Shown: piece after piece, positions 3,033 through 25,610 of the stretch | Numbering within the stretch: the first letter of the stretch is position 1 | How the letters are laid out: each line of letters starts with the position of its first letter | Assembly (NCBI GenBank): GCA_963769025.1 | Contig: CAVYKI010000003.1 | Span: forward strand, 768,001-832,000 | Length of the DNA stretch: 64,000 bases | Direction: 5' to 3' | Origin: an uncultured Verrucomicrobiae bacterium | Lineage (GTDB): Bacteria > Verrucomicrobiota > Verrucomicrobiia > Chthoniobacterales > Chthoniobacteraceae | Position numbers and translations under genes: made by a program | The notes under the pieces: generated by a model | The model's input: the letters and a program-made list of their open reading frames with translations, nothing else | What the model was told of the DNA's origin: nothing | Databases searched by the model: none

Positions 3033-3992
3033 ATGATCACCCAACTCGACCAACTCAAGAAACTCACCAAAGTCGTCGCCGATACGGGCGATTTCGAATC
3101 CATGAAGGCCTACAAGCCGCAGGATGCGACGACGAATCCCTCGCTCATCCTCGCCGCCGCCTCCAAGCCGGAGTACGCGCCGCTCGTGGACAAGGCCGTG
3201 GCCGACCGCAAGAACAGCGGCCTCACCGGCGCCGCGCAGGTGGAGGACGTGATCGACAACATCCTCGTGAATTTCGGTCTCGAAATTCTGAAGATCGTCC
3301 CCGGCCGCGTGAGCACGGAGACGGATGCGCGCCTGTCATTCGACAAGGACGGAAGCATCAAAAAGGCCCACCAACTCATCGCAATTTACGAGAAGAACGG
3401 CATCAGCCGCGACCGCGTGCTGATCAAGATCGCGAGCACGTGGGAGGGCATCAAGGCCGCCGAGGTGCTCGAAAAGGAAGGCATCCACTGCAACCTGACG
3501 CTCCTCTTCTCGCTCGCGCAGGCGATTGCGTGCGCCGAGGGCGGCATCACGCTCATCTCGCCTTTCGTCGGCCGCATCCTCGACTGGTACAAGGCCTCGA
3601 CGAAGAAGGATTACGCTCCGACCGAGGACCCCGGCGTGGTGTCGGTCACGCAGATTTTCAACTACTACAAGAAATTCGGCTACAAGACCGAGGTGATGGG
3701 CGCGTCGTTCCGCAACAAGGGCGAGATCACGGAGCTCGCGGGCTGCGACCTGCTCACCATCAGCCCGGCGCTGCTCGGGGAACTCCAGGCCAGCACGGAG
3801 CCGATCGTGCGGAAACTCGACGCGAGCGCCGCGAAGGGCATGGACATCGCCAAGCGGCACATCGACGAAAAGACGTTCCGCTACGAGGTGAACGATGACG
3901 CGATGGCGACGGAGAAGACGGCGGACGGCATCCGCAAGTTCGCCGCGGACATCGTGAAGCTCGAGCAGCTCGTCGCGAAGAAGCTCGGCTAA
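3033..3992 (+). CDS. tal: Transaldolase (large, TalB type)
   Basis: [59 protein letters not shown]. Confidence 0.97.
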
Positions 3993-5338
3993 CGAGCCTC
4001 CACGCGTAACCGCTCCAGCAAAGGGCGGTGGTCGAAAAAACCTGCCGCGCCCGGTGGTGCCGGGATCGTATGCCCGTCGCCGAGCCAGATGCGGCCGGCG
4101 TGCAGAGCCGCGAGCGCGTCGGCGTTGAAGGCAAAGTATTTTTGCGGCCGGGTGCCGCCTTGCAGTGCGACGAGTGCGGTCATGCCCCAGTGATCCATCG
4201 CTGTGCGCGCGACCCACGGGACGGCCTCGTGCGGGACGACGGCGCGCGGGTCATTTGCGATGTCGTTTTCAAGCCGCACGACGAGCCGGTGCCAACCGAG
4301 TGACTGGAGTGCGATGACGACGAAGAACACGGCTGCCGAAGCGGGCGCGAATGCGAACGAAACCGGCTTTCCCGGCACGCGACGCGCGGCGAGGAATGCA
4401 GCGATGAGGAACGGGAATGCGAACGGCACGACCCACCGGCGGTAGTTGATCGCGCCCGCCCAGCGCTCCGGCACCGCAGCCCACCACGCCCACAGCACGC
4501 CCGTGGCGGCAAGTGCCAGCAACCCCGCGCGCTGCGCGCCGCGGCCACGCGCGAGTGGCGCAAGGGCGGCGAGCCACATGGCGAGCATCCCGTAGAGCGG
4601 CGGGCCGACCACGCCGTCACACCATGTCGTGGCGATCTCCGACCACGACATGCGCTGCGCCGCGTAGCTGTCGTGCAGCGCACCCGACCAGTTCGGGTTC
4701 GAGATCCACAGCACCTTCGCGATTGCAAGTGCGAGCAACACCGCGAGTGCCGCCACTTTTGCGGACTGTGCGCGTCGGAATTCCGGCTGCGATCGGCCGA
4801 CCAGCCACGCCGCGATCAGCGCCGCTCCGAGGAGCAGGATGCCCGCCTGATGAGAGAGTTGGAAAAGGGCGAGCACGCCGAGCGCACACGCACAACGCCG
4901 CGACACCGGCACGAGCGCGCCGAGGAATACCGGCCAGAACATCGTCTGCTGCCAGATGCTGTCGTTGATCACGAACGCCTGCCCCGGCAGTCCCGCGAGC
5001 GCGACGCCGAACGCAGCCCATACGATCAGCTCCGGCCGGTTCCGCCGCACGACGAGCCACGAGATCCCCAGGCTCGCCGCCGGAGCGGCGATGAATGGCA
5101 GGCCGAATGCAAACGTGAGCGCGGTGAGATTATCCGTCGCGCTGCTCAGCGCGACGCAGGGCCACCACAGCAGCCACGAGTGGAATCGCGTCTGGTAAAA
5201 ATACGGCTTCTGCTCCACGAGGCTGACGGCGAGCTGGTATGCGCCGTCCCACACGAGCGGCAGGCCGCAGACGCAGGCGATGATTGATGCCGCGACGAGC
5301 AGGCCGCACGTCAGCCACACCGCGCGGGCCGCGCTCAA
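3989..5338 (-). CDS. Polytopic membrane protein, possibly GT-C fold
   Basis: 449 aa with many hydrophobic segments; acidic WDG motif just after TM1; TTG start overlaps the epsI stop. Function is inferred. Confidence 0.65.
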
Positions 5339-6030
5339 TGGTACTGGACGGTGTCGAGGTGGATCTTCGGCGCGAGCATCGCGATGAAGTTGCGGATGGC
5401 CTGCTGCGATCCTTTGCGTGCGGCTTCGTTGTCCTTCGGATCCTTCTGGGGCGGCACGATCCCGCTCACGAGGATGAATGCCCAGCGCTGGTTGACGCCA
5501 CGGAAGAGCCGGTCCCGATTATCGATGGCCCAACGTTCCCAGTGGCCGTTGCAGACCTCATCTTCTCCGACGAACCAGTAGAACGCCTGCAGATCGAGTG
5601 TGACGGGGCTTTTTTCCGCCTGGATGAGACGGCTGCAGCGCAACTGCGTGACGGGGAAAGTCCCGCGCGTCGGCAGCGACACGGCAAAGGTGTCGCTCTC
5701 CCGCCGGGCCCATCCCTGCGCATCGAGGCAGCGCTCGGGGCGGTGGATGCTCGTGCTCATATCGCGGCCGGAAAGGACGATGGTGACGGTAATTTCGTGG
5801 TCGCCGAGATTCCGGTAGACCTTGCGGATGATGCGGGTGCCGGTGGCGACACCGAGGCCGAAGCGTTCCTTGTCGGTGATTTCCCCGTCGGTGCCGATCC
5901 AGTTGGCAACGTAATCCGGCAGTTCCATGCGGATGCCGGTGGGTTGGTTGGGGCTTTTCGGGAGAAGGAAGACGGTCGCAAACCCGAGCGCCATGAACGC
6001 GAGCAATGTGGCAAGCCGGCTAGTAGTCAT
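5335..6030 (-). CDS. epsI: Exosortase-associated EpsI family protein
   Basis: N-terminal TM; SIHRPERCLDAQGW motif; YWFVG; overlaps the exosortase 3' end; ATG at 6030. Confidence 0.88.
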   Translation of the reverse strand: MTTSRLATLLAFMALGFATVFLLPKSPNQPTGIRMELPDYVANWIGTDGEITDKERFGLGVATGTRIIRKVYRNLGDHEITVTIVLSGRDMSTSIHRPERCLDAQGWARRESDTFAVSLPTRGTFPVTQLRCSRLIQAEKSPVTLDLQAFYWFVGEDEVCNGHWERWAIDNRDRLFRGVNQRWAFILVSGIVPPQKDPKDNEAARKGSQQAIRNFIAMLAPKIHLDTVQYH

Positions 6031-7099
6031 AGTGCAGCGGCTTCTTGGGCTTCGGTGCCTTCCCGGGTGCCGGGGAAGATTTGGGAGCGGCCGACTTGGC
6101 CGGCTGCGCGGCAAACCATTGCTCGAAAAGCGCACGCCAGTCGCGATTGATCAGCGATCCAAAGCCGGCCATCGCGGCGACAGCCACGGGGAAGAACACG
6201 AGGCCCGAGTAGTCGTGGTAGCTCTTTGTCGCGATCTCGGGACTCACAAACCGGGCGAAGAGGACGACGGAAAACACGCGGGCGAAATTTCCCAGCACGG
6301 CGAAAATCAGCGAACTGCCGAAGAGGATCACGCCCCGCACAGTCCCGCGCATCACAAAGTAGGCGTAAAGTGCGGCGATCGTGCTCATCGCCATGAGCGA
6401 CCGGATTCCCGAGCAGCCGCCCGCGACCTCCATCGGCGGAAACCTCCCGTCGGCTGACGTGATGCTGCTGCCATCCACAAGGATCGGGATGCCGCAGATC
6501 GAGGAAAGAATCTGGATGGCCTTCGCCGTGAGCACCTGCAGGGACGCGGTGCCCTGCACGACTCCGCCGAGCGGCGTCATGAAAAGGAGAAAGATGCACG
6601 GAAAGAGAACAAGCCGGCTGATCGGCACGCCAAAAAGAAAACGCGTGATCCCGTAAAACAGGAACGGCAGCGCAAAAATCGTGTACCGCGCCTCCGTGCA
6701 GCGCACACCCGCGACATAAAGCAGCACGCCAGCTCCGACAAACCACAATCCGGAATTGCTGCCCCGCTTCGGCAGCACGGCGATCTCCTTCCATCGGAAA
6801 AGGACGAGCAAGACGGATACCGGAAGGATGAACCAGCAGTGCTCCTGATCGTTTTCCGCATTCCACCCGGCCGAGATCCAGTGCGCGGCACTGATTTTCA
6901 TCCCCACGAATGCCTTGATCCCAAAGTAGGCGTACCCAAGCACACCGATGAGAAGGCCAAGCAGCACCGTCTGCACGGGATTTTTCCGGCACCATCGGAA
7001 CAGCGCGGCAAGCAGCCTAGGGACGTCGGGAAACAACGTCCGGTCCGCTTCGCGAACCGGTTCATCGAGATCAACGATGGGTTGTGAGGTCTCTGCCAT
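6020..7099 (-). CDS. Exosortase (EpsH/Xrt family)
   Basis: Multi-TM protein with Cys-Arg-His triad: VAGGCSGIRSL, GNFARV, YHDYSG. Confidence 0.93.
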   Translation of the reverse strand: MAETSQPIVDLDEPVREADRTLFPDVPRLLAALFRWCRKNPVQTVLLGLLIGVLGYAYFGIKAFVGMKISAAHWISAGWNAENDQEHCWFILPVSVLLVLFRWKEIAVLPKRGSNSGLWFVGAGVLLYVAGVRCTEARYTIFALPFLFYGITRFLFGVPISRLVLFPCIFLLFMTPLGGVVQGTASLQVLTAKAIQILSSICGIPILVDGSSITSADGRFPPMEVAGGCSGIRSLMAMSTIAALYAYFVMRGTVRGVILFGSSLIFAVLGNFARVFSVVLFARFVSPEIATKSYHDYSGLVFFPVAVAAMAGFGSLINRDWRALFEQWFAAQPAKSAAPKSSPAPGKAPKPKKPLHYDY

Positions 7100-7192: not shown

Positions 7193-7912
7193 TCAAAGGG
7201 CGAAGCCGGCGGACTTCGCGTCGCGATCGAACATCCGCACCGTGTCCAGCGAGAGATCCGTGAGATCCATTCCGGCCATCTTGATCGCCTTGGCCAGGAT
7301 GTCGTGCTGGACGGTCACGATGTGCGCGCCGCACGCGTCGGCCTGGAAGATATTGAGCACTTCGCGCACGCTCGCCCAGAGCAGTTCCGCCTTCGGGAGC
7401 GGATTCAGGATCTCCAGCGACTTGCGCATGACATTCACCGGATCGCGCCCCGTGTCGGCGATGCGACCGGCGAAGACCGACACGACGGATGGCACCTCCG
7501 GGTTCAGGACTGCGGCGACTGCGCGCACCTGCTCGACGGAGAGGATGGCCGTGACGTTGAGCTGCACGCCCTCCGTCGCGAGGTCGCGGATGAGATCATA
7601 CGACGGCGCACCCGCGGGATTCATCACGGGGATCTTCACATACACATTGCCCTGCCACGCCGCGATCTTCAGCGCCTGCCGCCGCATCTCGGCGAAGTCG
7701 TCCGAGAACACCTCGAAGGAGATCGGCTTGTCCTTTACGGTCTGCAGGATGTCCTTCGCGAAGCCCTCGTAGTCCCGGATGCCGCTCTTGTTCATCAGCG
7801 TCGGGTTGGTGGTCATTCCCTTGATGAGCGGATTCGCGTAAAGCTGGACCATGCCGGCCTTGTCGGCGCCGTCGGCGAAGATTTGCACGCGGAGATGTTT
7901 AAGCGAGGTCAT
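7193..7912 (-). CDS. Small transaldolase (TalC/FSA fold), sugar-cluster associated, LmbR-like candidate
   Basis: IFADGAD, MTTNPTL, ISFEV, VYVKIP (Schiff-base Lys), LNVTAI, SVFAGRIAD, LLWASVR. Confidence 0.9.
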   Translation of the reverse strand: MTSLKHLRVQIFADGADKAGMVQLYANPLIKGMTTNPTLMNKSGIRDYEGFAKDILQTVKDKPISFEVFSDDFAEMRRQALKIAAWQGNVYVKIPVMNPAGAPSYDLIRDLATEGVQLNVTAILSVEQVRAVAAVLNPEVPSVVSVFAGRIADTGRDPVNVMRKSLEILNPLPKAELLWASVREVLNIFQADACGAHIVTVQHDILAKAIKMAGMDLTDLSLDTVRMFDRDAKSAGFAL

Positions 7913-8046
7913 TGGGGCTGGGCTGTGGCACGCGCGGACGGCTCAAATTCCGCACATGCCGCTCCCTTAAAGCAGGCGCGGTGCCCGCGGCCCTGAACAT
8001 CTCGCCGCAGGCCCGAACGTCAGGCGGGAAGCGGTGGCCGCCCGCC

Positions 8047-9033
8047 TCAGATCACCTGCTTCGTTCCCTCGAAATCGAAGCGGAAACGCACCTCGCGTCA
8101 GGCCGGCCTGCCGCATCGCATGCCGCAGACGCGTTCTTGTCCTCGGCGTAAGAACATCAGGAATCCGCCGCCGCCCGCGCCGATGAGCTTTCCGCCGAGC
8201 GCGCCATTCGCCATCGCAAGGTCGTACCATTCGTTGATCTGCGGGTTGCTCATCCCGCCGGAGCGCTCCTTTTTCCGCTGCCAGTGCACGTCCATCAGCC
8301 GCGCGAATTCGCGCAGATCGCCGGACTCGAGCGCCTCCTTGCTCTGGAGCCCGAGCTCCTTGACGAAGTGCAGATTGTCCACCATCGCCCTGTCCAGGCT
8401 CTTGGTCCGGTCGTTCTGCTCCTTCAGGATCGCAGACGCCGAACGCGTGTAGCCGGTGAAGAACAGCAGCAGGTTGTCCTCCAGATTGAAGAGCGTCTCC
8501 TCGTCGATTTTCACGCGGCAGGACCTCGACCTTGCCGCCCGGGAGAAAATGAAACGAGGTGAGGCCGCCGACCGCCGCGATGTACTGGTCCTGCTTGCCG
8601 ATCGGCTCGTCGCAGCTTCTCGATCTCGATCTCGCAGGCCTGCGCCGCGATCTCCGCCGGGACGCACGATGTTCTTTCTGTAAGCGTGCAGCGCCTTCAG
8701 CAGCGCGGTCGTGAAGCTGCCCGACGAGCCAAGCCCCGTGCCCGCCGGGATGTCCGCCATCGAGGTCGAGTTCCAGATATGCGCGCATCCACACCGACGC
8801 AGCTTCAGCGCTTCGCGGATGATCGGGTGCTCGAGCTCGTCCACGCTCTTCACGCGCTCGAGCTTCGAGTACTTGACGATCAGCTCGTGCACGAAGGTCC
8901 GGTGCAGCGTGATGTAGACGTATTTGTCGATCGCCGCCGCGATGAGGAAGCCGCCGTGCTCTTCGTAGTAGGACGGCAGGTCGGTGCCGCCGCCGCCGAG
9001 GGAGATGCGAAGGGGTGAGCGTGTGATGATCAT
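8047..9033 (-). CDS. GHMP sugar-phosphate kinase (HddA/LmbP-like), several frameshifts
   Basis: MIITRSPLRISLGGGGTD, DIPAGTGLGSSG, GKQDQY, GGKLIGAGGGGFLMF and C-terminal RFRFDFEGTKQVI* are spread over different frames. Confidence 0.88.
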
Positions 9034-10025
9034 GCGTAGCCGCTCTTTTTGTAAATCGTCTCGACGATACGCAGCGCCGCCGCGCGCTTCGCGCAAGCCC
9101 GGGGTTCGGCGCGCGCCCGAGGCGGATGTCTTCGATGAAAGCCTCCGCACTCCAGCCGCCACGACTCGTCGCCGCGCGGATACTCGAAGATCGTCGTCTC
9201 CGGCGGCCCCATCTCCGGCAGCATCTTGTAAAAGTGCAGCCGCTCGACGCCGTAGCTGCCGCCGAGTCCTTCGATGTGCAGCTTCCCGTCGCGACCGTAG
9301 ATTTCGAGGGAGAACAGATTCTTCCACTCCGTGCAGCTCACGTGCAGCCACGCGGTCTGGTCCTGCGCGGTGCGGAGATTGAGGAACGCGTTGTCGTCCA
9401 CCGGCATGTCCCAGAAGTAGGTCGTCGCGTGACCCGTCGATGCTCGTGAAATCGCCGAGGAACCAGCGGGCGAGATCGATCAGATGCACGCCCTGGTCGA
9501 TGAGTTCGCCGCCGCCGGAGAGCTTCGGATCGGCGCGCCATTCGCGGTCGTAGCCCGACCCGTCCGCCGTGCCCGTAGCGCCCGCGGAGAAACATCAGCG
9601 GCCCGAGCGACGCCGGAGTCCGCAAGCTCGCGCGCCTTTTGCAGCGCCGGGTGGAAGCGGTGATTGTATCCCACGCGGACAATCACGCGCTTCTCCTCCG
9701 CCAGCACGCGAAGCGCTTCCGCCTCGTCCGCCAGGAATGCACCGGGCTTCTCGACGAGCACGTGCTTGCTGGCGCGGATCGCGTCCCCGGTCAGCGGGGA
9801 AAGGGCGGAGTTCACCGTGGAAACGATCACCGCATCCACGTCCGCCGACTTGAAGACCTCCGCCGGATCCGTCACCGCGCGGCATCCCGGCACCGTCGCG
9901 GCAAGCGACTCAGCCCGCCCGCGATCGAGATCGCACACGACGGCGAGCGAGCCCGCCGGCAGGCACGCCGCGCGCTTTTTTCCAATCAGCCCGCAACCGA
10001 TGATCGCAAATCTCACCGCGCTCAT
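9030..10025 (-). CDS. Gfo/Idh/MocA family oxidoreductase, frameshifted
   Basis: AIIGCGLIG, HVLVEKP, VGYNHRFHP, GGGELIDQGVHLIDL across frames; start and stop overlap the neighbours. Confidence 0.88.
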
Positions 10026-10886
10026 TGTTCCCACTTTTTGCCCCGGTCCTCGGGCACGATTCGCCGCAGTGTGTAGATGTCGCCGAATTCGTCGCTTGTG
10101 CGTGTGCAGCGTCGCTCCACGGGTCCCACTGCGCGGAGATGAGCCGCCCCGTCACGCCGTCACTGTCTCTGCTGCGCGAGGTATGCGCAGAGATTTGCCG
10201 CGAGTCCTGGCGGCGTGGCGCCATCCTCGGCCCACTTCTCATTCTTCGCGTAAAATGCCGCGCCGACTTTCTCCGGCCCGGCGTCGAGGACCTCCTGCGA
10301 TCATGCGCGTCTTGAGCGCGCCGGGCGCGACGGCGTTCACGTCGATGCCGTGCGGCTTCAGCTCCTCGGCCAGCGTCTCCATCAGCCGCACGACCGCCGC
10401 CTTCGACGCCGCGTAGGCACTGATGTTCGGCAGCGGATTCGTCGCGCCGCCACCGGAGATGATGATGATCTTCCCTCGGGCCGCGGCCTTGAAGTGCGGG
10501 ATCAGCGCGCGGCACGGCAGCAGCACGCCGTAGAGGTTGATCTCAATCGCGCGCGCCCACTCGGCAAATGGCACCGTCCTCGGTCGGCCCCATCGGGCCG
10601 TAGACGCCGGCGTTGTTCACGAGGATGTGGATGGCACCCATCTCCGCCAACGCGCCGGCGACCAGCTCATTCACCTGCGGCTCGTAGGAAACATCGCACG
10701 TGCGCGCGAGCACCTTCTGCCCGGCTGCGCGACCGCCGCGAGTTCCGCGCGCGTCTTCTCGAGCAGCGCCGCGTCCCGCGCGCAGATCATCACGCTCGCG
10801 CCTTCGCGGACGAAGTTCTCCGCAATGGCCCGACCCAGGCCCTGGCTGCCGCCGGTGATGAGCGCGTTGAGTCCCTGGAGTTTCAT
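10022..10886 (-). CDS. Short-chain dehydrogenase/reductase, frameshifted
   Basis: ITGGSQGLG, LVNNAG, YAASK, VNAVAPG; C-terminus DIYTLRRIVPEDRGKKWEQ*. Confidence 0.88.
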
Positions 10887-12156
10887 GTGGCTTTTCCCAC
10901 GGAGAAGTAACGGAGCCCCGCCGTCGCCGGCAGCACGGAATTCACAAAACGATTCGCATCAAAAATCAGCGGGCGGCGCATCGTGGGAATTAATTCCGCC
11001 CACGGCAGCGCCTTGAATTCCGGCCACTCGGTGCAGACGACCGCAGCGTCCGCACCAGCGAGTGCGCTGCTGGGATCGGGCGCCATCGTCGCACGCCGCG
11101 AGGTTGGCGGGCAGTTGCCTTGCCGCCGGATCAAACGCGCGGACCTCGCACCCTTCCGCGAGCAGCCGTTCGCAAAGCTCGACCGCATGCGCTGCGGCGC
11201 AGCGTGTCCGTCCCCGGCGTGTAGGTCAGCCCGAGCACGGCGACCGCGACGCCGCGCAGCGCGCCGACCTCGTCCTTCAGCCGGCGCAGCGCCCAGCCCT
11301 TGTGCCGGTCGTTGCTCTGCTTGATGGCCGGGATGAGTGCGAGCGGCTCTCCGCGGCTCGCGGCGAGTTGCGTGAGCGCCACCACGTCGCGAGCGAGCGT
11401 CCCGCCTGCGAACGCCGCGCCGGGTCCGAGATACGCCCGCTGCCCGATGCGGATGTCGCTCTTCAGCCCGGCCTCGACCTCCTTCGCATCTGCACCGGTC
11501 AGCTCGCAGAGCCGGGCGATTTCGTTGGCGAATGTCATCGACAGCGCGAGGAACGAATTGAGCGCGTGCTTGGTCATCTCCGCCGACTCCGTGCTCATCC
11601 AGATCACATTCGCGCAAAACGGGCGGAACAACTCGGAAAGCAACGCGCGATCCGCTTCGTTGCGGCAGCCCGCGACGATGCGCTCCGGCTCGTTAAAAAC
11701 CTTCAGCGCTCCGCCGAGCCGCAAATTCTCCGGCGAGCATGCGAAACGCAACGCCGGAAATTCCGTCTCGAGCCGGCGACACGTCCCGCCGGCAGCTGCG
11801 ACGAAATGAGAAACAGCGCGTCCGCCATTTGACGCAGGAACGATTCGCCGGATGCGCTCCATGACAAACTCCGCGTCCGACTCATCGTCGTCGTTCACCG
11901 GCGTATCGTAGGTGACCCACACCACGTCGGCATCCGCGCACGCCGTGTTTGCATCCGTGGCAAAGTCCAGCCTCCCGCTGCGCAGCCCGTCGCGGGTGAG
12001 GTCCTCGAGGCCCGGCTCGAAGAGCGGCGGCCTTCCCTCGCGCAGCGCCGCGATGTTGCCCGCGTCGAAATCGAGCCCGATCACCGCGAAGTGCCGCGCG
12101 CAGCAGGCCGCCGTCACGCACCCGAGATGCCAGAGCCCGAGGACGGCGATCTTCAT
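10883..12156 (-). CDS. UDP-glucose/GDP-mannose dehydrogenase-like protein lacking the catalytic Cys, frameshifted
   Basis: MKIAVLGLWHLG, PLFEPGL, YDTP, CSPENLRLG, SAEMTKHALNSFLA..MTFANE, D.RIG..YLGPGAAFAGGTLARD, VLGLTY.PGTDTLR, TEWPEF, IFDANRF. Confidence 0.85.
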
Positions 12157-13125
12157 CGCCGCGTGAGCACCCACTGGTTTTGCTGCAGCCACTGCAGCGT
12201 GCGCACGATGCCCTGCTCGATGCGTGAGCTTCGGCTGCCAGCCGGTGGCGCGGATTTTTGCGGTGTCGAGGAAGATGAACGGGTTGTCGCCGATCCAGCC
12301 GCGCTCGCCGCCGGTGAATTTCAGCTCCGGCTTGAGCCCGAGGTGCGCGCAGATCCAGCCGATCGAATCGGTCACCTGGCAGTACTCCGCCGTGCCGAGA
12401 TTGTAGATCTGCACGCGGTGCTTCGCCTTCTCCGCCGTGCGCGCGTTGACGACATGGAGGATCGCATCCACGCAGTCCTGCACGTAGAGATACGACTTCC
12501 GCTGCGTGCCGTCGCCGAGCACGGTGAGGTGATCCGGGTGTTCGAGCAGCTGCTTGTAGAAATCGAACACGTGCCCGTGCGTGTAGCGCTCGCCGAGGAT
12601 CGACACGAAACGGAAGATGTAACCCTCGAAGCCGAAGCCCTCGCAGTACGCCTCGATCAGATTTTCACCCGCGACCTTCGACGCGCCGTAGAGCGAAGTC
12701 TGGATCGGGAACGGCGCATCCTCCGGCGTCGGGATCACCGGCGCCTCGCCGTACACCGAGCCGGTCGAGGAGAACGCGATGCGCCTGATGCCGTTCGCGC
12801 GCATCGCCTCGAGCACATTGAAGGTCGCGATGGTGTTCTGCTGCAGGTCGCGGCCAGGATGCTCGGTGCCGAAACGCACGTCCGCATTTGCCGCGAAATG
12901 AAACACCATGTCGCAGCCTGCCATCGCCTTCGTCAGCGCCGCCGCATCGAGGTTGTCCCCTCGGTGGAGGACGAACCCCGGCTGCTTCCTTGCCGGCTCC
13001 AAGAACTCCTCCTGCCCCGCGGAAAAATTATCCCAGCCAACGACCTGAATGCCGAGTGCGAGCAACCGGTCCGCCATGGTGCTGCCGATGAATCCGGCGA
13101 CGCCTGTGATGAAAATTTTCTCCAT
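12153..13125 (-). CDS. NAD-dependent epimerase/dehydratase (GalE-like extended SDR)
   Basis: ITGVAGFIG, HFAANADV, FSSTGSVYG, SLYGASK; one extra base near 12222 hides the stop that overlaps the next ATG. Confidence 0.9.
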
Positions 13126-13197: not shown

Positions 13198-14220
13198 CTA
13201 CGGTTTGCGTTCGCCGCGCACCTTCGCCTTCTCCTCGCCGTATTTGTAAAAGGGCTCTCGGAAAAGGTAGAGCAGCCAGTGCGCAAATCCGGCGAGCGGC
13301 GAATGGTAGCCGAGCCAAGCGAGGAACGCGCTGTTAAAGCAGGCCAGCCCCGGGTAATCGGTCCACTTGCGGGTGAGGAAAAACGGCTTCCGTTGGAACT
13401 TCGCGATGTCGTCGTTGATGCGAATTTCCTCGAAGGGACACCACCAGCCGCGCGATCTGAAGTGCCGCAGGTAGCTCACCCGCTCCTCATCGATCTGCAT
13501 CAGCCGGCAGCATGCACGGTCCGCGGCGACGAGATCGTTCGACCCGAGCACGACATTGAAATCCACGACATCCCCGAGCATCGGCCCGGTGCGATTCAGC
13601 CCGTAGCGGCCGTCGATGATCGAGTAGGCATTCGGCAGGCGGCTGTTCAACTGGTACATGACCTCTGCAAAGTAAGGATGCAGCTTCAGCCGCACGTTCG
13701 GTTCCTGGATGCAGCCCCACTGGTTCTTGATCGACATCGAGACCAGCGTGTTCATGTGGATCTTCGGGACTGGCAGCGTGATGAACGCATCAATCTCGTG
13801 CAGGAGCAGCCGCGGCACCGGCACGCGCAGCCGCCGCCAGCCGGCGCGCACATCGATCCACTCCGGCTCCGTGAAGCTGAGATTGATCACCTCCGCACCG
13901 GCCTCCTTCGCCATTTCGTAGATGCCCATTCCCTTGAAAACCTCGTCCATCGAGAAGCGGTTGTAGCCGCCGCTGTCCGCCTCGCCGATGACGACGCGGT
14001 AGCCGTGGCGGATGAGGCACAACGTCACCGCACGGAGGCAATCCAGCGAGGTCATCACGCCGGGGCGGAACTCGGGAAATGTGAGATTCGGCTTCAGGAA
14101 AACCCGCGCCCCGGGCGCGACGTTCTCGAAGAAACCGATCTGCGCGAGCGTCTCCTCGATCACCGGTGCGTAGCCGCCGGCTTCGAGGCTCTTGATGAAT
14201 ACGACGGGCTGTTTGCTCAT
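13198..14220 (-). CDS. DUF362 family protein
   Basis: VFLKPNL, VIGEAD, LPVPKIH...SMSIKNQWG, IIDG....GP, DLVAAD. Confidence 0.8.
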   Translation of the reverse strand: MSKQPVVFIKSLEAGGYAPVIEETLAQIGFFENVAPGARVFLKPNLTFPEFRPGVMTSLDCLRAVTLCLIRHGYRVVIGEADSGGYNRFSMDEVFKGMGIYEMAKEAGAEVINLSFTEPEWIDVRAGWRRLRVPVPRLLLHEIDAFITLPVPKIHMNTLVSMSIKNQWGCIQEPNVRLKLHPYFAEVMYQLNSRLPNAYSIIDGRYGLNRTGPMLGDVVDFNVVLGSNDLVAADRACCRLMQIDEERVSYLRHFRSRGWWCPFEEIRINDDIAKFQRKPFFLTRKWTDYPGLACFNSAFLAWLGYHSPLAGFAHWLLYLFREPFYKYGEEKAKVRGERKP

Positions 14221-15377
14221 TTGCGCTCCAGGCATTCCTGATAGACGCGCTCGATCCTGCCCGCCATGTCTTTCAGCGCGAAACGGTCGGCGATCCTCCG
14301 GCGTCCCGCCGCTCCGAAACGCCGCCGCAGTTCGCCATCGCGCAGGAGCGATTCCAGTTTCTCCGCGAGCGCCACGGCATCATCCGGTGGCACGAGGAAA
14401 CCGGTTTCGCCGTCTGCCACCTGCTCGGTGGAGCCGCCGATGTTCGTGGCAATCACAGGCAGGCCCATGCACATCGCCTCCATGACCACGCCGCCAAATG
14501 GCTCCGGTTGCGCGGACGGCAGCACGAAGATGTCCATCGCCGAATAGGCGGGACGCGGATCGGGGAGTTCGCCCGTGAAAATCACGTCCGCTTCGAGGCC
14601 GAACTCGCGCACGATTCCGTGCAACGCGGCGAGATGCGATTCGTTGCCGGGGAACGGCGCGCCGACGACGAGGAATTTCGCCCGAACCCCGCGCTGGCGG
14701 AGCAACCCTGCGGCGCGCAGCAAGACCTCCTGCCCTTTTCGCCGGAGTTTGATCCGCCCGACGCAACCGACCACCGGCCCGTCCCCGAGCGCGTGCTGCG
14801 CGCGAAATTCCGCGCCACCCTGACGGTCGCCGCGTTCGAATTCCGCGATGTCGAAGCCGTTGTTGATCACCGTGACTTTCGCGCGATCGTTGAACTGCCC
14901 GGCGATCGCCTCCGAAACGGCGATGATGCGCACGGCAAAAACGCGCATCCATTTTTCATGGAAGCGCCAGAAGCCGCGGAACTCCTGGAACCAGTCGCGG
15001 ATGTGCCAGACATGCGGCAGGCCCGCGAGCCAAGCCGCCGGGCCTGGGGAGAGGATCACGCCGGTGTTCGAGTGGACGAGCACGATGCGTTCGCGCTTCA
15101 GGATCGCGAGCACGCCCAGCACCGAGCGCGGGATGTTCAGCAAAAAAAACGGCAGCCGCCAGGACTTGAGGACTGCGCGGTCGATGACGCTGAGCGGCGG
15201 ATAGACGAGCACTCGCACGCCGGTAGCGCGCAATTGCTCCGCGAGCGGGCCCTCGGCGGGCAGCATCACGAACGGCTCGTAGCGCTGCCGGTCCAGCGTG
15301 CGCAGCAGCCGCAGGAGCGAGCGGCTCGCGCCGTAGATGTCGGCGCTGTTGTGAACGTAGAGAATGCGGTCCGGCAT
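14217..15377 (-). CDS. Glycosyltransferase family 4
   Basis: YGASRSL, VWHIRD, IAVSEAI, RKGQ, EPFGGVVMEAM (E-X7-E). Confidence 0.92.
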   Translation of the reverse strand: MPDRILYVHNSADIYGASRSLLRLLRTLDRQRYEPFVMLPAEGPLAEQLRATGVRVLVYPPLSVIDRAVLKSWRLPFFLLNIPRSVLGVLAILKRERIVLVHSNTGVILSPGPAAWLAGLPHVWHIRDWFQEFRGFWRFHEKWMRVFAVRIIAVSEAIAGQFNDRAKVTVINNGFDIAEFERGDRQGGAEFRAQHALGDGPVVGCVGRIKLRRKGQEVLLRAAGLLRQRGVRAKFLVVGAPFPGNESHLAALHGIVREFGLEADVIFTGELPDPRPAYSAMDIFVLPSAQPEPFGGVVMEAMCMGLPVIATNIGGSTEQVADGETGFLVPPDDAVALAEKLESLLRDGELRRRFGAAGRRRIADRFALKDMAGRIERVYQECLERK

Positions 15378-15383
15378 GGTTGC

Positions 15384-16745
15384 TTACTTCGAGCGGTGCA
15401 GATTGCGCACGTAGAGGAATTTCCCGCTGCCGGAAGCCGGGATGTCCGGCACGCGGTCGATGGCGAGTTGCGCGCCAGGGCCCAGCACTTTCCCGAGATC
15501 GTCGCGGATGCGCGCCGCTGTCTCACGAAATGCATCGTCGGACAACGAACCGTCCATCTGCATCGCGAGCGAATAGTCCGCGGCGCCGTGCTGGACGAAC
15601 TGGAATTTTCCAAGCGCGCCCGCGTTGTGGACGACGCCGACCAAATGGCGGATGAAAATGGGGCTCACGTACGCGCCGTCTGCGGCTGTGATGAATTCGG
15701 AGATGCGGCCCTCGACGCGTTCGAGCAGCGGCAGCGGCGAGCCGCAGGGGCAAAGGCCGTCCTTCAGCGCGCCCATGTCGCCGATCTCGTAGCGGATGAT
15801 CGGGAAGCGGCGGTTGTTCAAGAGCGTCACGAGAATTCGGCCCATCGTGCCGGCGGGCACTGACTGGCCGTGGTCATCCACGATCTCGAGATGCACGCCG
15901 GTTTGGTAAATGTGGAAGCCACCCGCAGCGCATTCGCAGGCCATGTCCGCGCATTCGCGGCTGCCGTACTTGTTATGAACGCGCGCACCGAAGACCCGGC
16001 GGATGATGTTGCGATTCTCCTCCGTCACGGTGCCGGCGCAGGCCATCACGGACTTCAGCGGACGCATTTGCATCCCCCGCTTCTCGATGAAGCGCGCGAG
16101 CTGCTCGGCGGCATCCACGTAGGCCATGAGGTGCATGAGCGATGAGCCATTGATCTCCTGCGCGTAGGCCATCATGCGCGCTTCGTCCATGAGGAAGGCA
16201 TTGAGCGGACGCGCCTGGAGCAGCTCGGTGAGGATGCGCTTCTGTGCGGAGTCCTTCGCCTCGCTGATGTCGCGCATCGAGCCCCACAGCATGAAGAACG
16301 GCGTGCCGAGGGCGAACCCGCACAGATGCTGCGAATACAACCGGCCAGCGCGGCCCCAGTCGCGGAAGTCGCGATCGTGGATGACTCGCGTCGGCGTGCC
16401 GGTGGAGCCGCCGGTCTTCACGTCGACCCACGAGTAGCGCCGCTTTCGTTTCTCGCCGCGGTATTCCGCGAGCAGCGAGGGCTCCATCATTTCCCCGAAA
16501 TGCGCATGCACGTCGTTTTTCCGCAGCACCGGAAACGCCGCGAGCTCCGCGCTCTGCACGCGGTCGCGATAGTACGGCACATTTTCCACCGCATGCCGCA
16601 GCAGCGCGGTGAGGCGCTCGTGGTGGACGTCCGCGAGGCGCGCGGGAGTCCATTTTTCCACGTCGAGAAACTCGCGGTAATGCGTGCGCAAATCCGAGCC
16701 GAGCAGGTCGTGGCCGATGAGGAACGCGTGCTTTCGCCAGTTCAT
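15384..16745 (-). CDS. CapK/phenylacetate-CoA ligase-like adenylate-forming enzyme
   Basis: A.ENVPYY, KTGGSTGTP, YGSRE, LVTLL....PIIRYEIGD, CPCG, VEGR; ATG at 16745. Confidence 0.87.
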   Translation of the reverse strand: MNWRKHAFLIGHDLLGSDLRTHYREFLDVEKWTPARLADVHHERLTALLRHAVENVPYYRDRVQSAELAAFPVLRKNDVHAHFGEMMEPSLLAEYRGEKRKRRYSWVDVKTGGSTGTPTRVIHDRDFRDWGRAGRLYSQHLCGFALGTPFFMLWGSMRDISEAKDSAQKRILTELLQARPLNAFLMDEARMMAYAQEINGSSLMHLMAYVDAAEQLARFIEKRGMQMRPLKSVMACAGTVTEENRNIIRRVFGARVHNKYGSRECADMACECAAGGFHIYQTGVHLEIVDDHGQSVPAGTMGRILVTLLNNRRFPIIRYEIGDMGALKDGLCPCGSPLPLLERVEGRISEFITAADGAYVSPIFIRHLVGVVHNAGALGKFQFVQHGAADYSLAMQMDGSLSDDAFRETAARIRDDLGKVLGPGAQLAIDRVPDIPASGSGKFLYVRNLHRSK

Positions 16746-18103
16746 TCCAGTTCGATGTGATCCCGCCAGCCGGGCGGAGGGAGAAAGCGCCGGAGCACCG
16801 GAATGGCGTCGATGCCGCGGTCGCTGCGCTGCCCGTTCAGATCCACGGCGAACGCAGCCGGGTCGAAGCCGCCGAATGCCGCGTCCGGGAACCGGCGCCA
16901 GTTCGCGAGCAGGCGGATTTTCCGGAAATCGAAACCCATCATCCTGGCCATCGCAAAATCGACGAGGAACGGATTGCGCGCCGCGAGCATCACGCCGGCC
17001 TGCACGGGCAGCGGCTGCAGCGGGCCGTTGCCCTCGCCCGCGACGATGCCGTCCATGATGGAAACAAACTGCCGCTGCGGATCGGCGCGGAGCGGACCGC
17101 CATGGGCGTGGGCGAAAAGAATGATGCGGTTCAGATCGTACACCATGCGCCAGATCGAGTCGTTCCCGTACCACGAGCCGGAGCCGACATAGAAGGTGCC
17201 GCCGAGATTTTCCTTCGTGCCGACGGTCTTGATTCCCCGGAGCTTCTTCACCACCTCCCATCCGCCCTTGAGCACCTTGAAAAGCAGGCGCGATTTTTTT
17301 TGGAAGCGCTCACGCAGCCGGGCCTGCAGAAGCATCCAGCGCGACACGTTTTCCGGAAATTCGTCGCCGCCGGCCGACGGGAGTCCCAGCTGGTGGTGCA
17401 CGAGGTAGGCCTTGGAGCCGTTGATGCCGACGAGATTCTTGAGCGCGCCGGTGACGCCGGTCTTCTGGTGCGTCTTCATCTTCGGCAGATTGATGACGAG
17501 GTCGGCCTCGAGCACGGTGCGTGCGATGAGGTAGCGGTGCTGGCCCTTGCGATGCACGCTCACGGTCTCGGCGGGATCGTAGTCGGAGACGCGGAAGGAC
17601 GCGGCGTTGTGGCTGACTTCCTCGAGGAGGCTCGAGTCGTCGATGACGATCTCGCTGTAGCCGAGCGGGTCGCCGGGATGCGCCGTGTCGAGTTCGAGAA
17701 AACCGCCTTCGGGCCGCCAGCGTTCGCGGCGCAGGTCGAGGAACTGGATCGCCGGCTGCGTGTGGCCGCGATATTTCCCGATGAGCCGATCCACGCCCGC
17801 CTGCGCGAGCAGCGCGGACCAGTCGCACGTCTGGAGCGGCACGTCGCCGATGGTGAGCTTTTCCAGCCGCGGATATTTTTGCAGGCACGCCTGGATGCAC
17901 TGGTCGATCAGCTCCGTGCTGGTGACCAATGCGGCGATGGGAAATTCCGCGTGCTCCTGGTGCTTCACCCAGTTCGGCTTGATCATCACCTTGCGGAAGT
18001 CGCCCTCGGGAAGATTGCGCAGGATGAACGCAGAAGCCTCGTCCGGACGGGCGATCAGCACGTCGAGGAAAGGCGGTGTCGCGGCGCGGTTCACCGGCTC
18101 CAT
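16742..18103 (-). CDS. DUF362 family protein (long form)
   Basis: VMIKPNWV, IGDVP, VINLPKMKTHQKTGVTGALKNLVG, MDGIVAGEGNGP. Confidence 0.82.
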   Translation of the reverse strand: MEPVNRAATPPFLDVLIARPDEASAFILRNLPEGDFRKVMIKPNWVKHQEHAEFPIAALVTSTELIDQCIQACLQKYPRLEKLTIGDVPLQTCDWSALLAQAGVDRLIGKYRGHTQPAIQFLDLRRERWRPEGGFLELDTAHPGDPLGYSEIVIDDSSLLEEVSHNAASFRVSDYDPAETVSVHRKGQHRYLIARTVLEADLVINLPKMKTHQKTGVTGALKNLVGINGSKAYLVHHQLGLPSAGGDEFPENVSRWMLLQARLRERFQKKSRLLFKVLKGGWEVVKKLRGIKTVGTKENLGGTFYVGSGSWYGNDSIWRMVYDLNRIILFAHAHGGPLRADPQRQFVSIMDGIVAGEGNGPLQPLPVQAGVMLAARNPFLVDFAMARMMGFDFRKIRLLANWRRFPDAAFGGFDPAAFAVDLNGQRSDRGIDAIPVLRRFLPPPGWRDHIELE

Positions 18104-18945
18104 CGGAAGGAGGGTTTCGCGACGTGAAAGGAGGTACGCGCGGACGGATCGAGATAGACGGAATAGTCGAACGGCGCGTGGCGGTAGGCGCCGTGGAGCA
18201 GCTTGCGCAGCCGGTAGTGCGCGAGCACGGCGAGACGCAGGGCCCGCGCCCAACCGGGTGCGGAGGCGATGAGTTGCGCCTGCTCCCGCACGCCGCGCTC
18301 GGAGAGCATCATGTTGGAACCGTGGTCGAGGAACGTGGAGGTGATGCGCGGGAGGATGCCCATCGGCACGCCGGTGTCGATCAGGCGCATGACCCATTCG
18401 CCATCGCCGATCGCACAGCGGTCGGGATTGAAGAGCAACCCGCGGTCGAGGATCGCCTGTCTCCGAAAAAAGGTCGCGCAGGTCAGGATCGCCAGGTTGC
18501 CGCTCACCCACGTGTGGATTTTGCCGGGCAGGATCGCCTTCCGCAGGCAGAGGCACCGTCCCTGCGCGTCGATCACCAGAGCATGGGCAAAGGCCACATC
18601 GACGGCCGGATTTTCGTCGAAGTATTTCCCGACGGCCTCCAGCGCCCCCGGGAGATACTGCTCATCGCAATTCAGGTACGCGGCGATTTCGCCGCTCGCG
18701 CGCTGGAGGCCGCGGTTGATCGCGTCGTACATCCCGGTGTCCTTTTCCACGAAGAGCCGGAAGGCGCGCGCAGGGTCGCCGCGCTGCAGCCCAGCCGCCC
18801 ACGCCTCCAGCTCGGGGCCGGTTCCGGCATCCTGCACGATGTGCTCGCTGGTCACGCCTTCCTGATCGGCGACGGAAGCCGCCGCCAGTTTGAGCCAGGC
18901 CAATTGTCGAAAGCTGGGGGTGATGATCGAGAACTTCGGCCGCAT
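18091..18945 (-). CDS. Glycosyltransferase family 2
   Basis: FSIITPSF, VQDAG, EKDTGMYDAINRG, YLNCDE. Confidence 0.9.
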   Translation of the reverse strand: MRPKFSIITPSFRQLAWLKLAAASVADQEGVTSEHIVQDAGTGPELEAWAAGLQRGDPARAFRLFVEKDTGMYDAINRGLQRASGEIAAYLNCDEQYLPGALEAVGKYFDENPAVDVAFAHALVIDAQGRCLCLRKAILPGKIHTWVSGNLAILTCATFFRRQAILDRGLLFNPDRCAIGDGEWVMRLIDTGVPMGILPRITSTFLDHGSNMMLSERGVREQAQLIASAPGWARALRLAVLAHYRLRKLLHGAYRHAPFDYSVYLDPSARTSFHVAKPSFRWSR

Positions 18946-19137
18946 GCGCGCGGCTACAGTGAGCGCGCACGCGGAATCCCGCAAGGCGGCGCTCGCCGCC
19001 AGCCGGATGGATGGCGATAGGCGCGCCTCTTTGCACTTTACTGGCCGCACGGGCTGTCCCTACCGTCCGCGCGCCTTTCACAGCCGATTCCGGGTGGCCT
19101 TTCGTGCGCTCCGGTCGCACAACGGCCCAACCCATCC

Positions 19138-19266
19138 ATGAGCGTCGCATTTGCCACCGGTTCCGCGGGTCTGATCGGCTTGAAATCGGGCTCCCCGGTC
19201 CTTGCTGCGGATCCGGATGTGGCGCAAGCCGGGACCGGCGATGGATGCCCTCCAAGTGGCCGATGA
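19138..19266 (+). pseudogene. 42-aa remnant of an NAD-dependent epimerase N-terminus
   Basis: Reads MSVAFATGSAGLIGLKS...GR*, with a TGxxGxxG Rossmann motif; its TGA overlaps the ATG of the next GT2. Confidence 0.55.
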
Positions 19267-20039
19267 TGCCTGTCCCGGATAGCCCCACCGCTCCGGCGCG
19301 GCTCCAGCTTCTTTCGATCGTTATCCCGGCCCGCGACGAGGAAGCCTGCATCGCATCCACGGTCGAGCACCTTCACGTCGAGCTCGATCTCCGCGCGGTG
19401 CCGCACGAGATCGTGGTCGTCGACGATGGGAGCAGCGACAAGACGTGGGATGTCCTCCAATCCATCAAGGCCCGCATTCCGCAGTTGCAAGCGATCCGGA
19501 ACGAAGGACCGCACGGCTTCGGGAGGGCCATCATCGCCGGCCTCGGTCACTCGAGGGGCGATGCGATCGTCATCATGATGGCGGACGAATCCGACGACTG
19601 CCGGGACGTGGTGCGCTACTGGGAAAAGCTCAACGAGGGCTACGACTGCGTGTTTGGCAGCCGGTTCGTCAAAGGCGGCGGCGTGATCGACTATCCGCGC
19701 TTCAAGCTGCTCGTGAACCGGCTCGCGAACTTCTTCCTGCGCGTGCTTTTCAACATCCGGCTCAACGACACCACCAACGCGTTCAAGGCGTATCGCCGCA
19801 CCGTCATCGAAGGGTGCCGCCCGCTCATCGCGCCGCACTTCAATCTCACCGTCGAGCTCCCGCTGAAGGCCATCGTGCGCGGCTTCTCGTGGACCGTGAT
19901 CCCGATCACGTGGCGCAACCGCCGCCACGGCGAGGCCAAGCTCAAGATCAAGGAAATGGGCAGCCGCTACCTCTTCATCTGCCTCTACGTGTGGTTGGAA
20001 AAATACTTCAGCCGGGGCGACTATCGGAAGCAGCCATGA
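19263..20039 (+). CDS. GT2, DPM1-like polyprenol-phosphate glycosyltransferase
   Basis: LSIVIPARDEE, VVDDGSSDKT, GFGRAIIAG, MMADESD, VFGSRF, DTTNAFKAYR. Confidence 0.9.
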   Translation: MMPVPDSPTAPARLQLLSIVIPARDEEACIASTVEHLHVELDLRAVPHEIVVVDDGSSDKTWDVLQSIKARIPQLQAIRNEGPHGFGRAIIAGLGHSRGDAIVIMMADESDDCRDVVRYWEKLNEGYDCVFGSRFVKGGGVIDYPRFKLLVNRLANFFLRVLFNIRLNDTTNAFKAYRRTVIEGCRPLIAPHFNLTVELPLKAIVRGFSWTVIPITWRNRRHGEAKLKIKEMGSRYLFICLYVWLEKYFSRGDYRKQP

Positions 20040-20728
20040 CCGGGAACGAACCGACAGAATTGCGCGGCATCTACCAGCGTCGCTTTGAAAAAATGCGCGA
20101 CTACCGCAAGCGCGTCTGGGAGGTGCTGGTCCGTGAGAAATTCCAGGCCTGCGTGAAACCGGATGCCACGGTGCTCGACCTCGGGTGCGGCTACGGCGAA
20201 TTCATCAACCAGATCCGCTGCGGGAAAAAATACGGCATGGATCTGAACCCGGACTCCCGCAAAAATCTCGCTCCCGACGTGGAGCTGCTGGAGCAGGATT
20301 GCTCCACGCGCTGGCCGTTTCCGGACGACACGCTCGACACCGTTTTCACGAGCAACTTCTTCGAGCACCTGCCCGGCAAAGCGGCGCTCAAGGCCACGCT
20401 CGACGAGGCTCATCGCTGCCTGAAACCGGGAGGCCGGCTCATCGCCATCGGTCCCAACATCAAATACCTGCCCGGCAGTTACTGGGATTTTTGGGACCAT
20501 CACCTTCCACTCACGGAGCTCTCCCTGTCGGAGGGGCTCGCCAGCTGCGGCTTTTCCATCCGCGAATGCGTGGACCGTTTTCTCCCCTACACGATGGTGA
20601 ACGCCCGCGAGCACCCGCCGATTTTCGTCTCCCTCTACCTTCGCCTGCCGATCCTCTGGAGATTCTTCGGCCGTCAGTTTCTCATCATCGCGTCGAAGGA
20701 ACCCCCGGGCCAGCGCCCCACATTCTAA
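20036..20728 (+). CDS. Class I SAM-dependent methyltransferase
   Basis: VLDLGCGYG, SNFFEHL, RCLKPGGRL; ATGA overlap with the GT2. Confidence 0.9.
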   Translation: MTGNEPTELRGIYQRRFEKMRDYRKRVWEVLVREKFQACVKPDATVLDLGCGYGEFINQIRCGKKYGMDLNPDSRKNLAPDVELLEQDCSTRWPFPDDTLDTVFTSNFFEHLPGKAALKATLDEAHRCLKPGGRLIAIGPNIKYLPGSYWDFWDHHLPLTELSLSEGLASCGFSIRECVDRFLPYTMVNAREHPPIFVSLYLRLPILWRFFGRQFLIIASKEPPGQRPTF

Positions 20729-20735
20729 AGTGCAA

Positions 20736-21722
20736 ATGCAACCGCAACCAAAGGCGGGCTCGCCCGCCGTCGAAGTCTCGATCGTCATTCCGTTCTTCAA
20801 TGAAGAGGACGGCGTGGAGCGGCTCATGGAAAGGCTGCGCGCCCTGCTGGCAAACCAGAATCCGCAGTGGCAGCTCGTGCTCGTCAACGACGGGAGCCTG
20901 GACGACACGCGGGACCGTTTGCTCACGCGGCTCCGTGGCTTCGCAAATTGGAAATACATCCAGTTGAGCCGCAACTTCGGCCAGCAGGCGGCCTACCGCG
21001 CCGGCATCGACGCGAGCGACGGGAACGCCGTCGTCCTCCTGGATGCCGACCTGCAGGACCCGCCGGAACTCATCCCCGAAATGGTGGAACGCTGGAAACG
21101 AGGCGCGAAGCTCATCACCGCCTGCCGCAAGAGCAGGGCCGAGAAGGGCCTCCGGCGGCTGTTCTTCGAGGCGTTCCATTTCCTCTTCCATCGCATCACC
21201 GGCGGCGTGATGCCAAAGGACAGCGGCACCTTTGGACTGATGGACCGCGTCGTCGCAGACCAGTTGCGCAGGATGCCCGAGCTGAACGTCTTCTTTCCCG
21301 CCCTGCGCTCCTGGGTCGGCTTCAGGCAGGAGATCGTCTGGTACGATCGCGAAGCGCGGGAGGGAGCGCCGAAGCAGTCCATCCGGCGACTTTTCAGCTA
21401 TGCTTGGAATGGCATCACCAGCTTCAGCACCGTTCCGCTCCGGCTGATTTCGGTGCTCGGGCTGCTCGTCTCGATTGTCGGGTTCGGCTACGCTGGCGTC
21501 CTGATCGTGATCCGCTTCATGCAGACCTTCGGTTACTTTCCGGGACTGGTCGTGCAGGGCTTCACCACGCTCGCATCGGCGACGCTCTGCCTCGGAGGCA
21601 TCCAGCTCCTGTGCCTGGGCATCATGGGGGAATACCTGACCAAGATTTACACCGAGGTAAAACGGCGCCCGCCCTACGTGGTCGAGGAAGTCCTGGAGTC
21701 GCCGCGCACCGATGAATCCTGA
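20736..21722 (+). CDS. GT2, GtrB/ArnC-like undecaprenyl-phosphate glycosyltransferase
   Basis: SIVIPFFNEE, NDGSLD, LSRNFGQQAA, LDADLQDPPELI; two C-terminal TMs; GEYL..IY.EVK.RP.Y. Confidence 0.92.
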   Translation: MQPQPKAGSPAVEVSIVIPFFNEEDGVERLMERLRALLANQNPQWQLVLVNDGSLDDTRDRLLTRLRGFANWKYIQLSRNFGQQAAYRAGIDASDGNAVVLLDADLQDPPELIPEMVERWKRGAKLITACRKSRAEKGLRRLFFEAFHFLFHRITGGVMPKDSGTFGLMDRVVADQLRRMPELNVFFPALRSWVGFRQEIVWYDREAREGAPKQSIRRLFSYAWNGITSFSTVPLRLISVLGLLVSIVGFGYAGVLIVIRFMQTFGYFPGLVVQGFTTLASATLCLGGIQLLCLGIMGEYLTKIYTEVKRRPPYVVEEVLESPRTDES

Positions 21723-22464: not shown

Positions 22465-22467
22465 CGC

Positions 22468-23952: not shown

Positions 23953-23970
23953 GGCGGTTTCTGGAAAACT

Positions 23971-24055
23971 GCAGCCGCCGACGGCAGGAGGCGGGCACTT
24001 TTGAGATGCCTATTACAGAGGGAAAGCGTGCCCGCCTCGTTCCCTCGTCGGCTAC
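23971..24055. repeat. REP-like inverted repeat pair between convergent genes
   Basis: gcagccgccgacggcaggaggcgggcac ... gtgcccgcctcgttccctcgtcggctac form imperfect inverted arms with G(C/T)AG..CTAC ends. Confidence 0.6.
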
Positions 24056-24073
24056 GAAATAAAGTGAACCGCG

Positions 24074-25582: not shown

Positions 25583-25610
25583 CGAGGCCAGGACCGAGGA
25601 GCCGCGCGGA

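Follow-up and report, generated by a model that had tools for sequence, protein, structure and literature searches.

A split nine-gene cassette predicted to supply a GDP-linked eight-carbon sugar for surface glycans in a Chthoniobacteraceae bacterium

Lincosamide sugar biosynthesis in Streptomyces lincolnensis and S. caelestis offers the closest described model for a gene cassette of an uncultured Verrucomicrobiae bacterium, considered here within a 64,000-nucleotide stretch of its DNA (the window, G000:C3:768001-832000, where G000 is the source genome). In that model, LmbR, LmbN, LmbP, LmbK and LmbO build a GDP-octose, which LmbM, LmbL, LmbZ and LmbS then tailor. The accessible part of PMC5854111 reports that LmbR combines fructose 6-phosphate or sedoheptulose 7-phosphate with ribose 5-phosphate to give octulose 8-phosphate. 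It also reports that a Trypanosoma transaldolase makes octulose 8-phosphate, so this reaction is not unique to LmbR. Conversion of GDP-octose into GDP-lincosamide is assigned to LmbM, LmbL, CcbZ and CcbS in the available text of PMC12945683. The portion of PMC4351081 at hand gives the lengths of CcbK (185 residues), CcbL (436), CcbM (325), CcbN (202), CcbP (323), CcbO (232) and CcbR (222), and its Lmb accession numbers run in the order K-L-M-N-Z-P-O-S-R. The nearest outside match named there is archaeal for CcbM and a Cellulomonas enzyme for CcbR.

The window contains six co-oriented genes on the minus strand (13125-7193), recognised by three-frame reading and family scans. Together with a trio of genes on another contig, they are one conserved nine-gene set. 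Judged from sequence, this set would make a GDP-linked eight-carbon sugar for a cell-surface glycan, a reading given a probability of roughly 0.55. The window part of the set reads as follows.

12153..13125, minus strand: NAD-dependent epimerase (PF01370), nearest to the GDP-Gal4E subgroup, with a predicted LmbM-like role; 1 frameshift
10883..12156, minus strand: UDP-glucose-dehydrogenase-like (UGDH-like) protein (PF03721/PF00984/PF03720) with GGTLARD and GLWHLG motifs and a predicted LmbL-like role; 4 frameshifts
10022..10886, minus strand: classical short-chain dehydrogenase/reductase (SDR) of type A, the kind that co-occurs with a UGDH-like protein lacking the catalytic cysteine (Cys-less UGDH) (PF00106); 6 frameshifts
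9030..10025, minus strand: Gfo/Idh/MocA oxidoreductase (Gfo) of the LmbZ-like family (PF01408); 5 frameshifts
8047..9033, minus strand: GHMP kinase of the HddA/WcbL/LmbP kind, an anomeric sugar-phosphate kinase (PF00288/PF08544); 9 frameshifts
7913..8046, minus strand: 134-nucleotide gap between kinase and transaldolase, the site of a nucleotidyltransferase, a SIS isomerase and a HAD phosphatase in most relatives
7193..7912, minus strand: small transaldolase, intact (TIGR02134, 298.8 bits against a cut-off of 281.95)

Family scans bear out the gene list of a preliminary description of this DNA (epimerase, UGDH-like protein, SDR, Gfo/Idh/MocA, GHMP kinase and transaldolase, co-oriented and mostly overlapping), and ATGA overlaps join the first five genes at their four junctions. 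Three genomes of the same genus, G014, G004 and G015, keep all six genes intact and in this order, so the arrangement is not due to chance. A tblastn search of the window found no isomerase, phosphatase or nucleotidyltransferase. The preliminary description had expected these to be supplied from elsewhere, and a tblastn search of the genome located all three, clustered at G000:C9:1031700-1033604 and 63-69% identical to the cassette members of relatives. In all five same-genus genomes searched, the isomerase lies on another contig, with the whole trio visible in four loci and the isomerase alone in the fifth; the split operon is therefore a genus trait. Four further same-genus stretches (L100, L101, L103 and L104) carry the transaldolase without cassette genes nearby, and G007 keeps the divergent isomerase elsewhere.

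Retrieval through the transaldolase yielded 80 related loci out of at least 523 qualifying stretches, and many of these loci end short of the full cassette. Homologues of the phosphatase are present in 73 loci, of the isomerase in 67, of the nucleotidyltransferase in 56 and of the kinase in 53, followed by Gfo (36), the epimerase (27), the SDR (26) and the UGDH-like protein (13). Of these loci, 65 extend 3.3 kb or more upstream, and 57 of the 65 have both isomerase and phosphatase. Fifty of the 65 have all four activation genes beside the transaldolase, that is, the lincosamide-type core of transaldolase, SIS isomerase, GHMP kinase, HAD phosphatase and nucleotidyltransferase as one unit. The usual order runs epimerase, UGDH-like protein, SDR, Gfo, kinase, nucleotidyltransferase, isomerase, phosphatase and transaldolase. 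Complete sets of nine are found on plasmids of Rhizobium jaguaris and Lawsonia and in alphaproteobacterial, gammaproteobacterial and Leptolyngbya metagenome-assembled genomes (MAGs). On Lawsonia intracellularis plasmid 3 (L093), the nine genes are shuffled; their neighbours encode an ATP-binding cassette permease, a GH99-like protein and, without annotation, two proteins of about 1,090 residues.

The prevalence of the cassette is patchy. The transaldolase family scores above its cut-off in 14 of 31 relatives (G000 counted) and is matched in 6 of 400 genomes sampled from the phylum to which G034 belongs. The divergent isomerase occurs in 34 of 86 genomes in the order of G102 versus 4 of 41 genomes in the G031 phylum. 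In four of six stretches fetched from the order of G102, eight or nine of the cassette genes follow one another in order. The closest named relatives of the window transaldolase, among the matches listed, belong to Spartobacteria and Chthoniobacter MAGs. The protein P0172 fuses transaldolase and SIS isomerase, and fusions of the isomerase with transaldolase, phosphatase or nucleotidyltransferase are seen in P0172, P0123, P0132 and others. At L125:7757-10459, a 901-residue open reading frame among glycan genes ends in a transaldolase domain, explained either by a fusion or by a start called in the wrong place. A cassette-free glycan locus, L120:9712-19359, pairs a TIGR02134 transaldolase with a dehydroquinate (DHQ)-synthase-like protein, an HpcH aldolase and a thiamine pyrophosphate (TPP) enzyme.

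Comparative analysis shows that five Lmb-type families occur together in the window, as had been proposed, and that with the trio on contig C9 the cassette shares eight of nine enzyme families with the Lmb/Ccb sugar genes, a likeness by family, length and gene order alone. All three families of lincosamide-type tailoring (epimerase, UGDH-like and Gfo) are present in the window. Most protein lengths are alike, both systems contain a Z-P-O run of Gfo, kinase and nucleotidyltransferase, and the transaldolase comes last in both. Unlike the Lmb set, the cassette carries an SDR instead of the aminotransferase LmbS, treats the UGDH-like gene as optional, and lies in glycan loci rather than in an antibiotic cluster. 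By gene content, the cassette would work like the Lmb pathway, as an analogue rather than a demonstrated member. A homologue search with the UGDH-like protein for Lmb/Ccb relatives returned only near relatives among the best 120 matches, and primer scans of metagenome contigs found no Lmb/Ccb sequences. No carrier-protein domain was found on the isomerase in 45 long proteins scanned from the best 150 profile matches. Two Streptomyces plasmid matches considered as lincosamide clusters were ruled out, as they are not such clusters.

The epimerase points to the nucleotide carrier. Its five best structural matches have E values of 1e-76 to 1e-57, with the next tier at 1e-35, and include 3EHE, 8RDG/8RDH/8RDI and 3AW9. 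The accessible part of PMC12171764 places these structures in a GDP-preferring Gal4E subgroup. Characterised members of that subgroup (PhGal4E_1, which is 8RDG, 3EHE and 3AW9) were assayed on hexose nucleotides. Three of four subgroup residues, R83, Y145 and H182, are conserved in the cassette enzyme, while P80 is replaced by Ala; the Trp of the RGW motif, likely the GDP-stacking residue, is also retained. Because the epimerase is nearest to this subgroup, GDP is favoured as the likely sugar carrier, which supports the earlier suggestion of a GDP sugar.

The UGDH-like protein shows the clearest residue change. GGTLARD replaces the GSCFPKD of canonical enzymes, with Thr at the Cys site in eight of eight aligned homologues as well as in the window, and the cofactor loop is altered to GLWHLG. 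The ordinary Ugd of the same genome, encoded on contig C9, retains the catalytic Cys. This residue is needed to complete oxidation to a uronic acid; since Thr replaces it, the UGDH-like enzyme is predicted to be one that cannot complete uronic acid formation. No Cys would be needed to oxidise the secondary C6 alcohol of a heptose or an octose just once. The predicted fold has a low-confidence centre (pTM 0.55) and the model was not used, and an Atlas search returned only UGDH-named clusters.

The isomerase on contig C9 has the GmhA fold with a different active site. Asp stands in place of the GmhA Glu after the conserved His, Val occurs in the GNGGS motif, and the phosphate loop is remodelled with a six-residue insert; the active-site motifs are invariant across phyla. 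On the GmhA model it scores 61 bits against a cut-off of 209.45, and a second gene of the genome, at 113 bits, is likewise below the cut-off, which makes this comparison a soft one. An HldE-like kinase in the same genome scores 322 of 345. The cassette's GHMP kinase, scored from a frameshifted open reading frame, reaches 119 against 600 on the HddA model NF049969. The transaldolase retains its Schiff-base Lys and the transaldolase-type Glu and Phe, residues that presumably keep their catalytic roles. The genes, their conservation, the split arrangement and these residue changes are direct observations, as is the purifying selection described below.

Tailoring genes occur in more than one combination. 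Among 27 loci with epimerase, Gfo and an SDR, 17 pair a type-A SDR with a Cys-less UGDH, two have type A without it, and eight have type B without it, so that the Cys-less UGDH accompanies 17 of 19 type-A and none of 8 type-B SDRs. In the type-B loci (L026, L027, L028, L033, L043, L062, L099 and L126), the epimerase and Gfo are accompanied by a distinct SDR of about 40% identity. Five type-B genomes, one of them 82% complete, were searched whole, and the best UGDH match was at most 302 bits in all five; full-length clade members, some of which were used to build the model, score 626-768 bits. From the 27-locus counts and the type-B genome searches, it follows that Gfo works without a UGDH-like enzyme and that the UGDH-like gene tracks SDR type A. 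Six further loci have Gfo and no SDR within the available stretch.

The preliminary description had placed an SDR where the aminotransferase would be, and this holds: the window gave no match to a DegT-like aminotransferase. In one of 31 epimerase-bearing loci, the type-B SDR and Gfo are separated by a full DegT/DnrJ aminotransferase gene (L033:3434-4612), and none of the other 30 has an LmbS-like gene; a DegT match in L027 was dropped because it spans only 41 residues. Glycosyltransferases of the polyprenol-phosphate GT2 kind occur in 8 and GtrA proteins in 4 of the 31 loci, raw counts taken without a background control from loci many of which are short. The window has two GT2 genes of this kind.

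We infer every reaction of the proposed pathway, as well as the chain length and the acceptor. The transaldolase would transfer a three-carbon unit of fructose 6-phosphate or sedoheptulose 7-phosphate to ribose 5-phosphate, giving octulose 8-phosphate, which the divergent SIS isomerase would convert to octose 8-phosphate. The GHMP kinase, HAD phosphatase and nucleotidyltransferase would then produce GDP-octose. The epimerase would invert C4, and the Cys-less UGDH would oxidise the C6 hydroxyl, a secondary alcohol in seven- and eight-carbon sugars, to a ketone. Gfo and the SDR may next reduce or re-oxidise the sugar, producing an epimerised, perhaps 8-deoxy, neutral octose. Nearby GT2, GtrA and membrane transferases would carry it onto the envelope.

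The state of the window copy and its link to contig C9 both bear on this reading. Comparison with the three intact same-genus copies reveals 25 frameshifting indels in the first five genes, whereas the transaldolase and the flanking talAB have none. Such a concentration would fit a cassette decaying in G000 itself, whatever the pathway does in relatives. However, 23 of the 25 events are insertions, 22 of them single-base, with only 2 deletions. In the G015 reading frame, none of the 1,922 codons compared across the six genes is a nonsense codon, amino-acid identity is 84-90%, and the ratio of nonsynonymous to synonymous substitution rates (dN/dS) is 0.11-0.17, resembling the 0.07-0.18 of the two other intact relatives. 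The essential alaS gene (window 44591-47591) is split over two open reading frames, and the phosphatase on contig C9 also carries a frameshift. Because of this insertion-heavy pattern, the two breaks outside the window cassette, the absence of nonsense codons and the low dN/dS, the frameshifts are probably consensus errors of the assembly, and decay is improbable. Even less credible is that the window genes and the trio on contig C9 belong to separate pathways, in which case the window enzymes would tailor a hexose nucleotide and the transaldolase would be either a passenger or a general booster of precursor supply. The off-contig isomerase of the five same-genus genomes and the four stretches with no cassette gene near the transaldolase agree with such a separation. 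Against it stand the identity of the trio to genes that lie between kinase and transaldolase in most relatives, and the proteins in which the isomerase is fused to transaldolase, phosphatase or nucleotidyltransferase.

A more substantial competitor is a modified GDP-heptose, with the transaldolase merely boosting sedoheptulose 7-phosphate. The pathway to GDP-D-glycero-alpha-D-manno-heptose (GmhA, HddA, GmhB and HddC), known from Campylobacter, Yersinia and Burkholderia capsules, follows the same four-step activation logic with the same families. Under this alternative, the core would be a divergent version of these four enzymes, the Cys-less UGDH and type-A SDR would epimerise C6, and the epimerase and Gfo would alter ring stereocentres. 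Several results favour it and weigh against an octose. The best structures for the GHMP kinase are heptose-7-phosphate kinases (E 5e-50), those for the nucleotidyltransferase are MurU-type and then heptose-pathway enzymes, and the isomerase has the GmhA fold. The transaldolase is 239 residues long versus 222 for CcbR and may not be an LmbR orthologue. An alignment and tree of 17 sequences showed no octose- or cassette-specific signature in it, with cassette and non-cassette members mixed, and outside the cassette, in glycan locus L120, it adjoins the DHQ-synthase-like gene. The missing Cys would also make sense if two enzymes together epimerised C6 of a heptose, in keeping with the near-exclusive pairing of Cys-less UGDH with SDR type A. 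Gfo and an SDR occur without a UGDH-like gene in 10 of 27 loci, which speaks against an obligatory LmbL/LmbZ pair. The chemistry of LmbL and LmbZ is taken here as general background; the pairing drawn from it in the preliminary description is weakened, and its reading of a conserved pathway stands. The literature searched ties no octose-bearing glycan to any carrier organism.

Other evidence counts against a heptose product. TalB, an HldE-like kinase and an isomerase gene closer to GmhA are all encoded in the same genome, yet the dedicated transaldolase is retained; plain heptose supply would therefore be redundant. To our knowledge, known GDP-heptose clusters have no transaldolase. The cassette's isomerase differs from GmhA in motifs that do not vary between phyla, and its kinase falls far below the HddA cut-off, with the frameshifted frame as the basis of that score. 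GDP-heptose is tailored by a 4,6-dehydratase, unlike the cassette sugar, for which Gfo, SDR, Cys-less UGDH and a GDP-Gal4E-like epimerase are available. On balance, a heptose product is a serious though doubtful alternative, and the GDP-octose reading is preferred.

A related arrangement links these families to a known surface structure. For the lipopolysaccharide locus of Coxiella burnetii, the available parts of PMC5843353, PMC13552124, PMC13252051, PMC6759588 and PMC9997736 assign a HAD-type phosphatase to cbu0673, a phosphoheptose isomerase to cbu0674, epimerases to cbu0676 and cbu0677, and a reversed-domain HldE to cbu0678. In its accessible text, PMC5843353 reports that cbu0678 is required for full O-antigen and records passage mutations in cbu0674, cbu0676 and cbu0677; the accessible portion of the PMC7014725 supplement gave no match in the comparison of this locus. 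A sister version of the cassette, at L159:11766-19619 and L123:9011-19977, has the cassette's isomerase and transaldolase clades together with an epimerase, a reversed-domain HldE-like enzyme, Gfo and a UGDH. Its HldE-like kinase/transferase replaces the GHMP kinase and nucleotidyltransferase, it has no SDR, and its UGDH has Asn at the Cys site versus Thr in the cassette. Genes of the TPP E1 alpha/beta type adjoin it in both loci, and L159 also has two DegT genes. The gene order of L159 follows cbu0674-0680, a likeness by gene order and not by sequence, for which the identities of cbu0675, cbu0679 and cbu0680 are our assumption and the others are as reported. By analogy, this Coxiella parallel may connect the cassette families to a surface phenotype, and it is the only such link found.

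The surroundings of the window cassette include the following features.

3033..3992, plus strand: housekeeping talAB, outside the cassette (TIGR00874, 507 bits against a cut-off of 396)
5335..7099, minus strand: exosortase and EpsI-family genes, directly downstream of the cassette (family scans)
13198..39619: surrounding glycan locus with GT4 and GT2 glycosyltransferases, methyltransferases, two DUF362 proteins and a Wzx-type flippase

The talAB gene is the housekeeping transaldolase already noticed near the cassette. The glycan locus also encodes a PMT_2-like membrane protein and a Wzy_C-like protein, both below cut-off. Directly upstream of the cassette and on the same strand (13198-18556) are the two DUF362 proteins, a GT4 and an F390-synthetase/PaaK-like ligase, possibly a glycan-acylating module. 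This setting agrees with the surface-glycan destination first proposed, whereas the suggested use in PEP-CTERM glycoproteins did not gain comparable support, resting solely on the adjacent exosortase gene. A crude pattern finds 15 PEP-CTERM-like tails in the genome. A promoter and terminator scan gave no signal above chance level.

In the literature searched, which most subscription journals lie outside, no description of the cassette beyond lincosamides was found, and the only GDP-octose pathway is that of the lincosamide antibiotics. New in this analysis are the split operon and the trio that completes it, the link to GDP-preferring epimerases, the SDR-type rule and the HldE-type sister version. 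Routine annotation labels the cassette's enzymes Ugd, GalE, galactokinase or housekeeping transaldolase. A broader view, held tentatively and at somewhat less than even odds, is that an undescribed, widespread GDP-octose pathway, with three or more tailoring versions, feeds surface glycans and formed the pool for the lincomycin sugar genes, with the HldE-type sister as a heptose-like branch for Coxiella O-antigen. Cassettes built from these enzyme families are maintained by purifying selection in Verrucomicrobiota, Pseudomonadota, Cyanobacteria and others, from which an envelope sugar not yet reported can be predicted. If this is true, the cassette would offer both a route for enzymatic synthesis and an origin for the lincosamide sugar genes.

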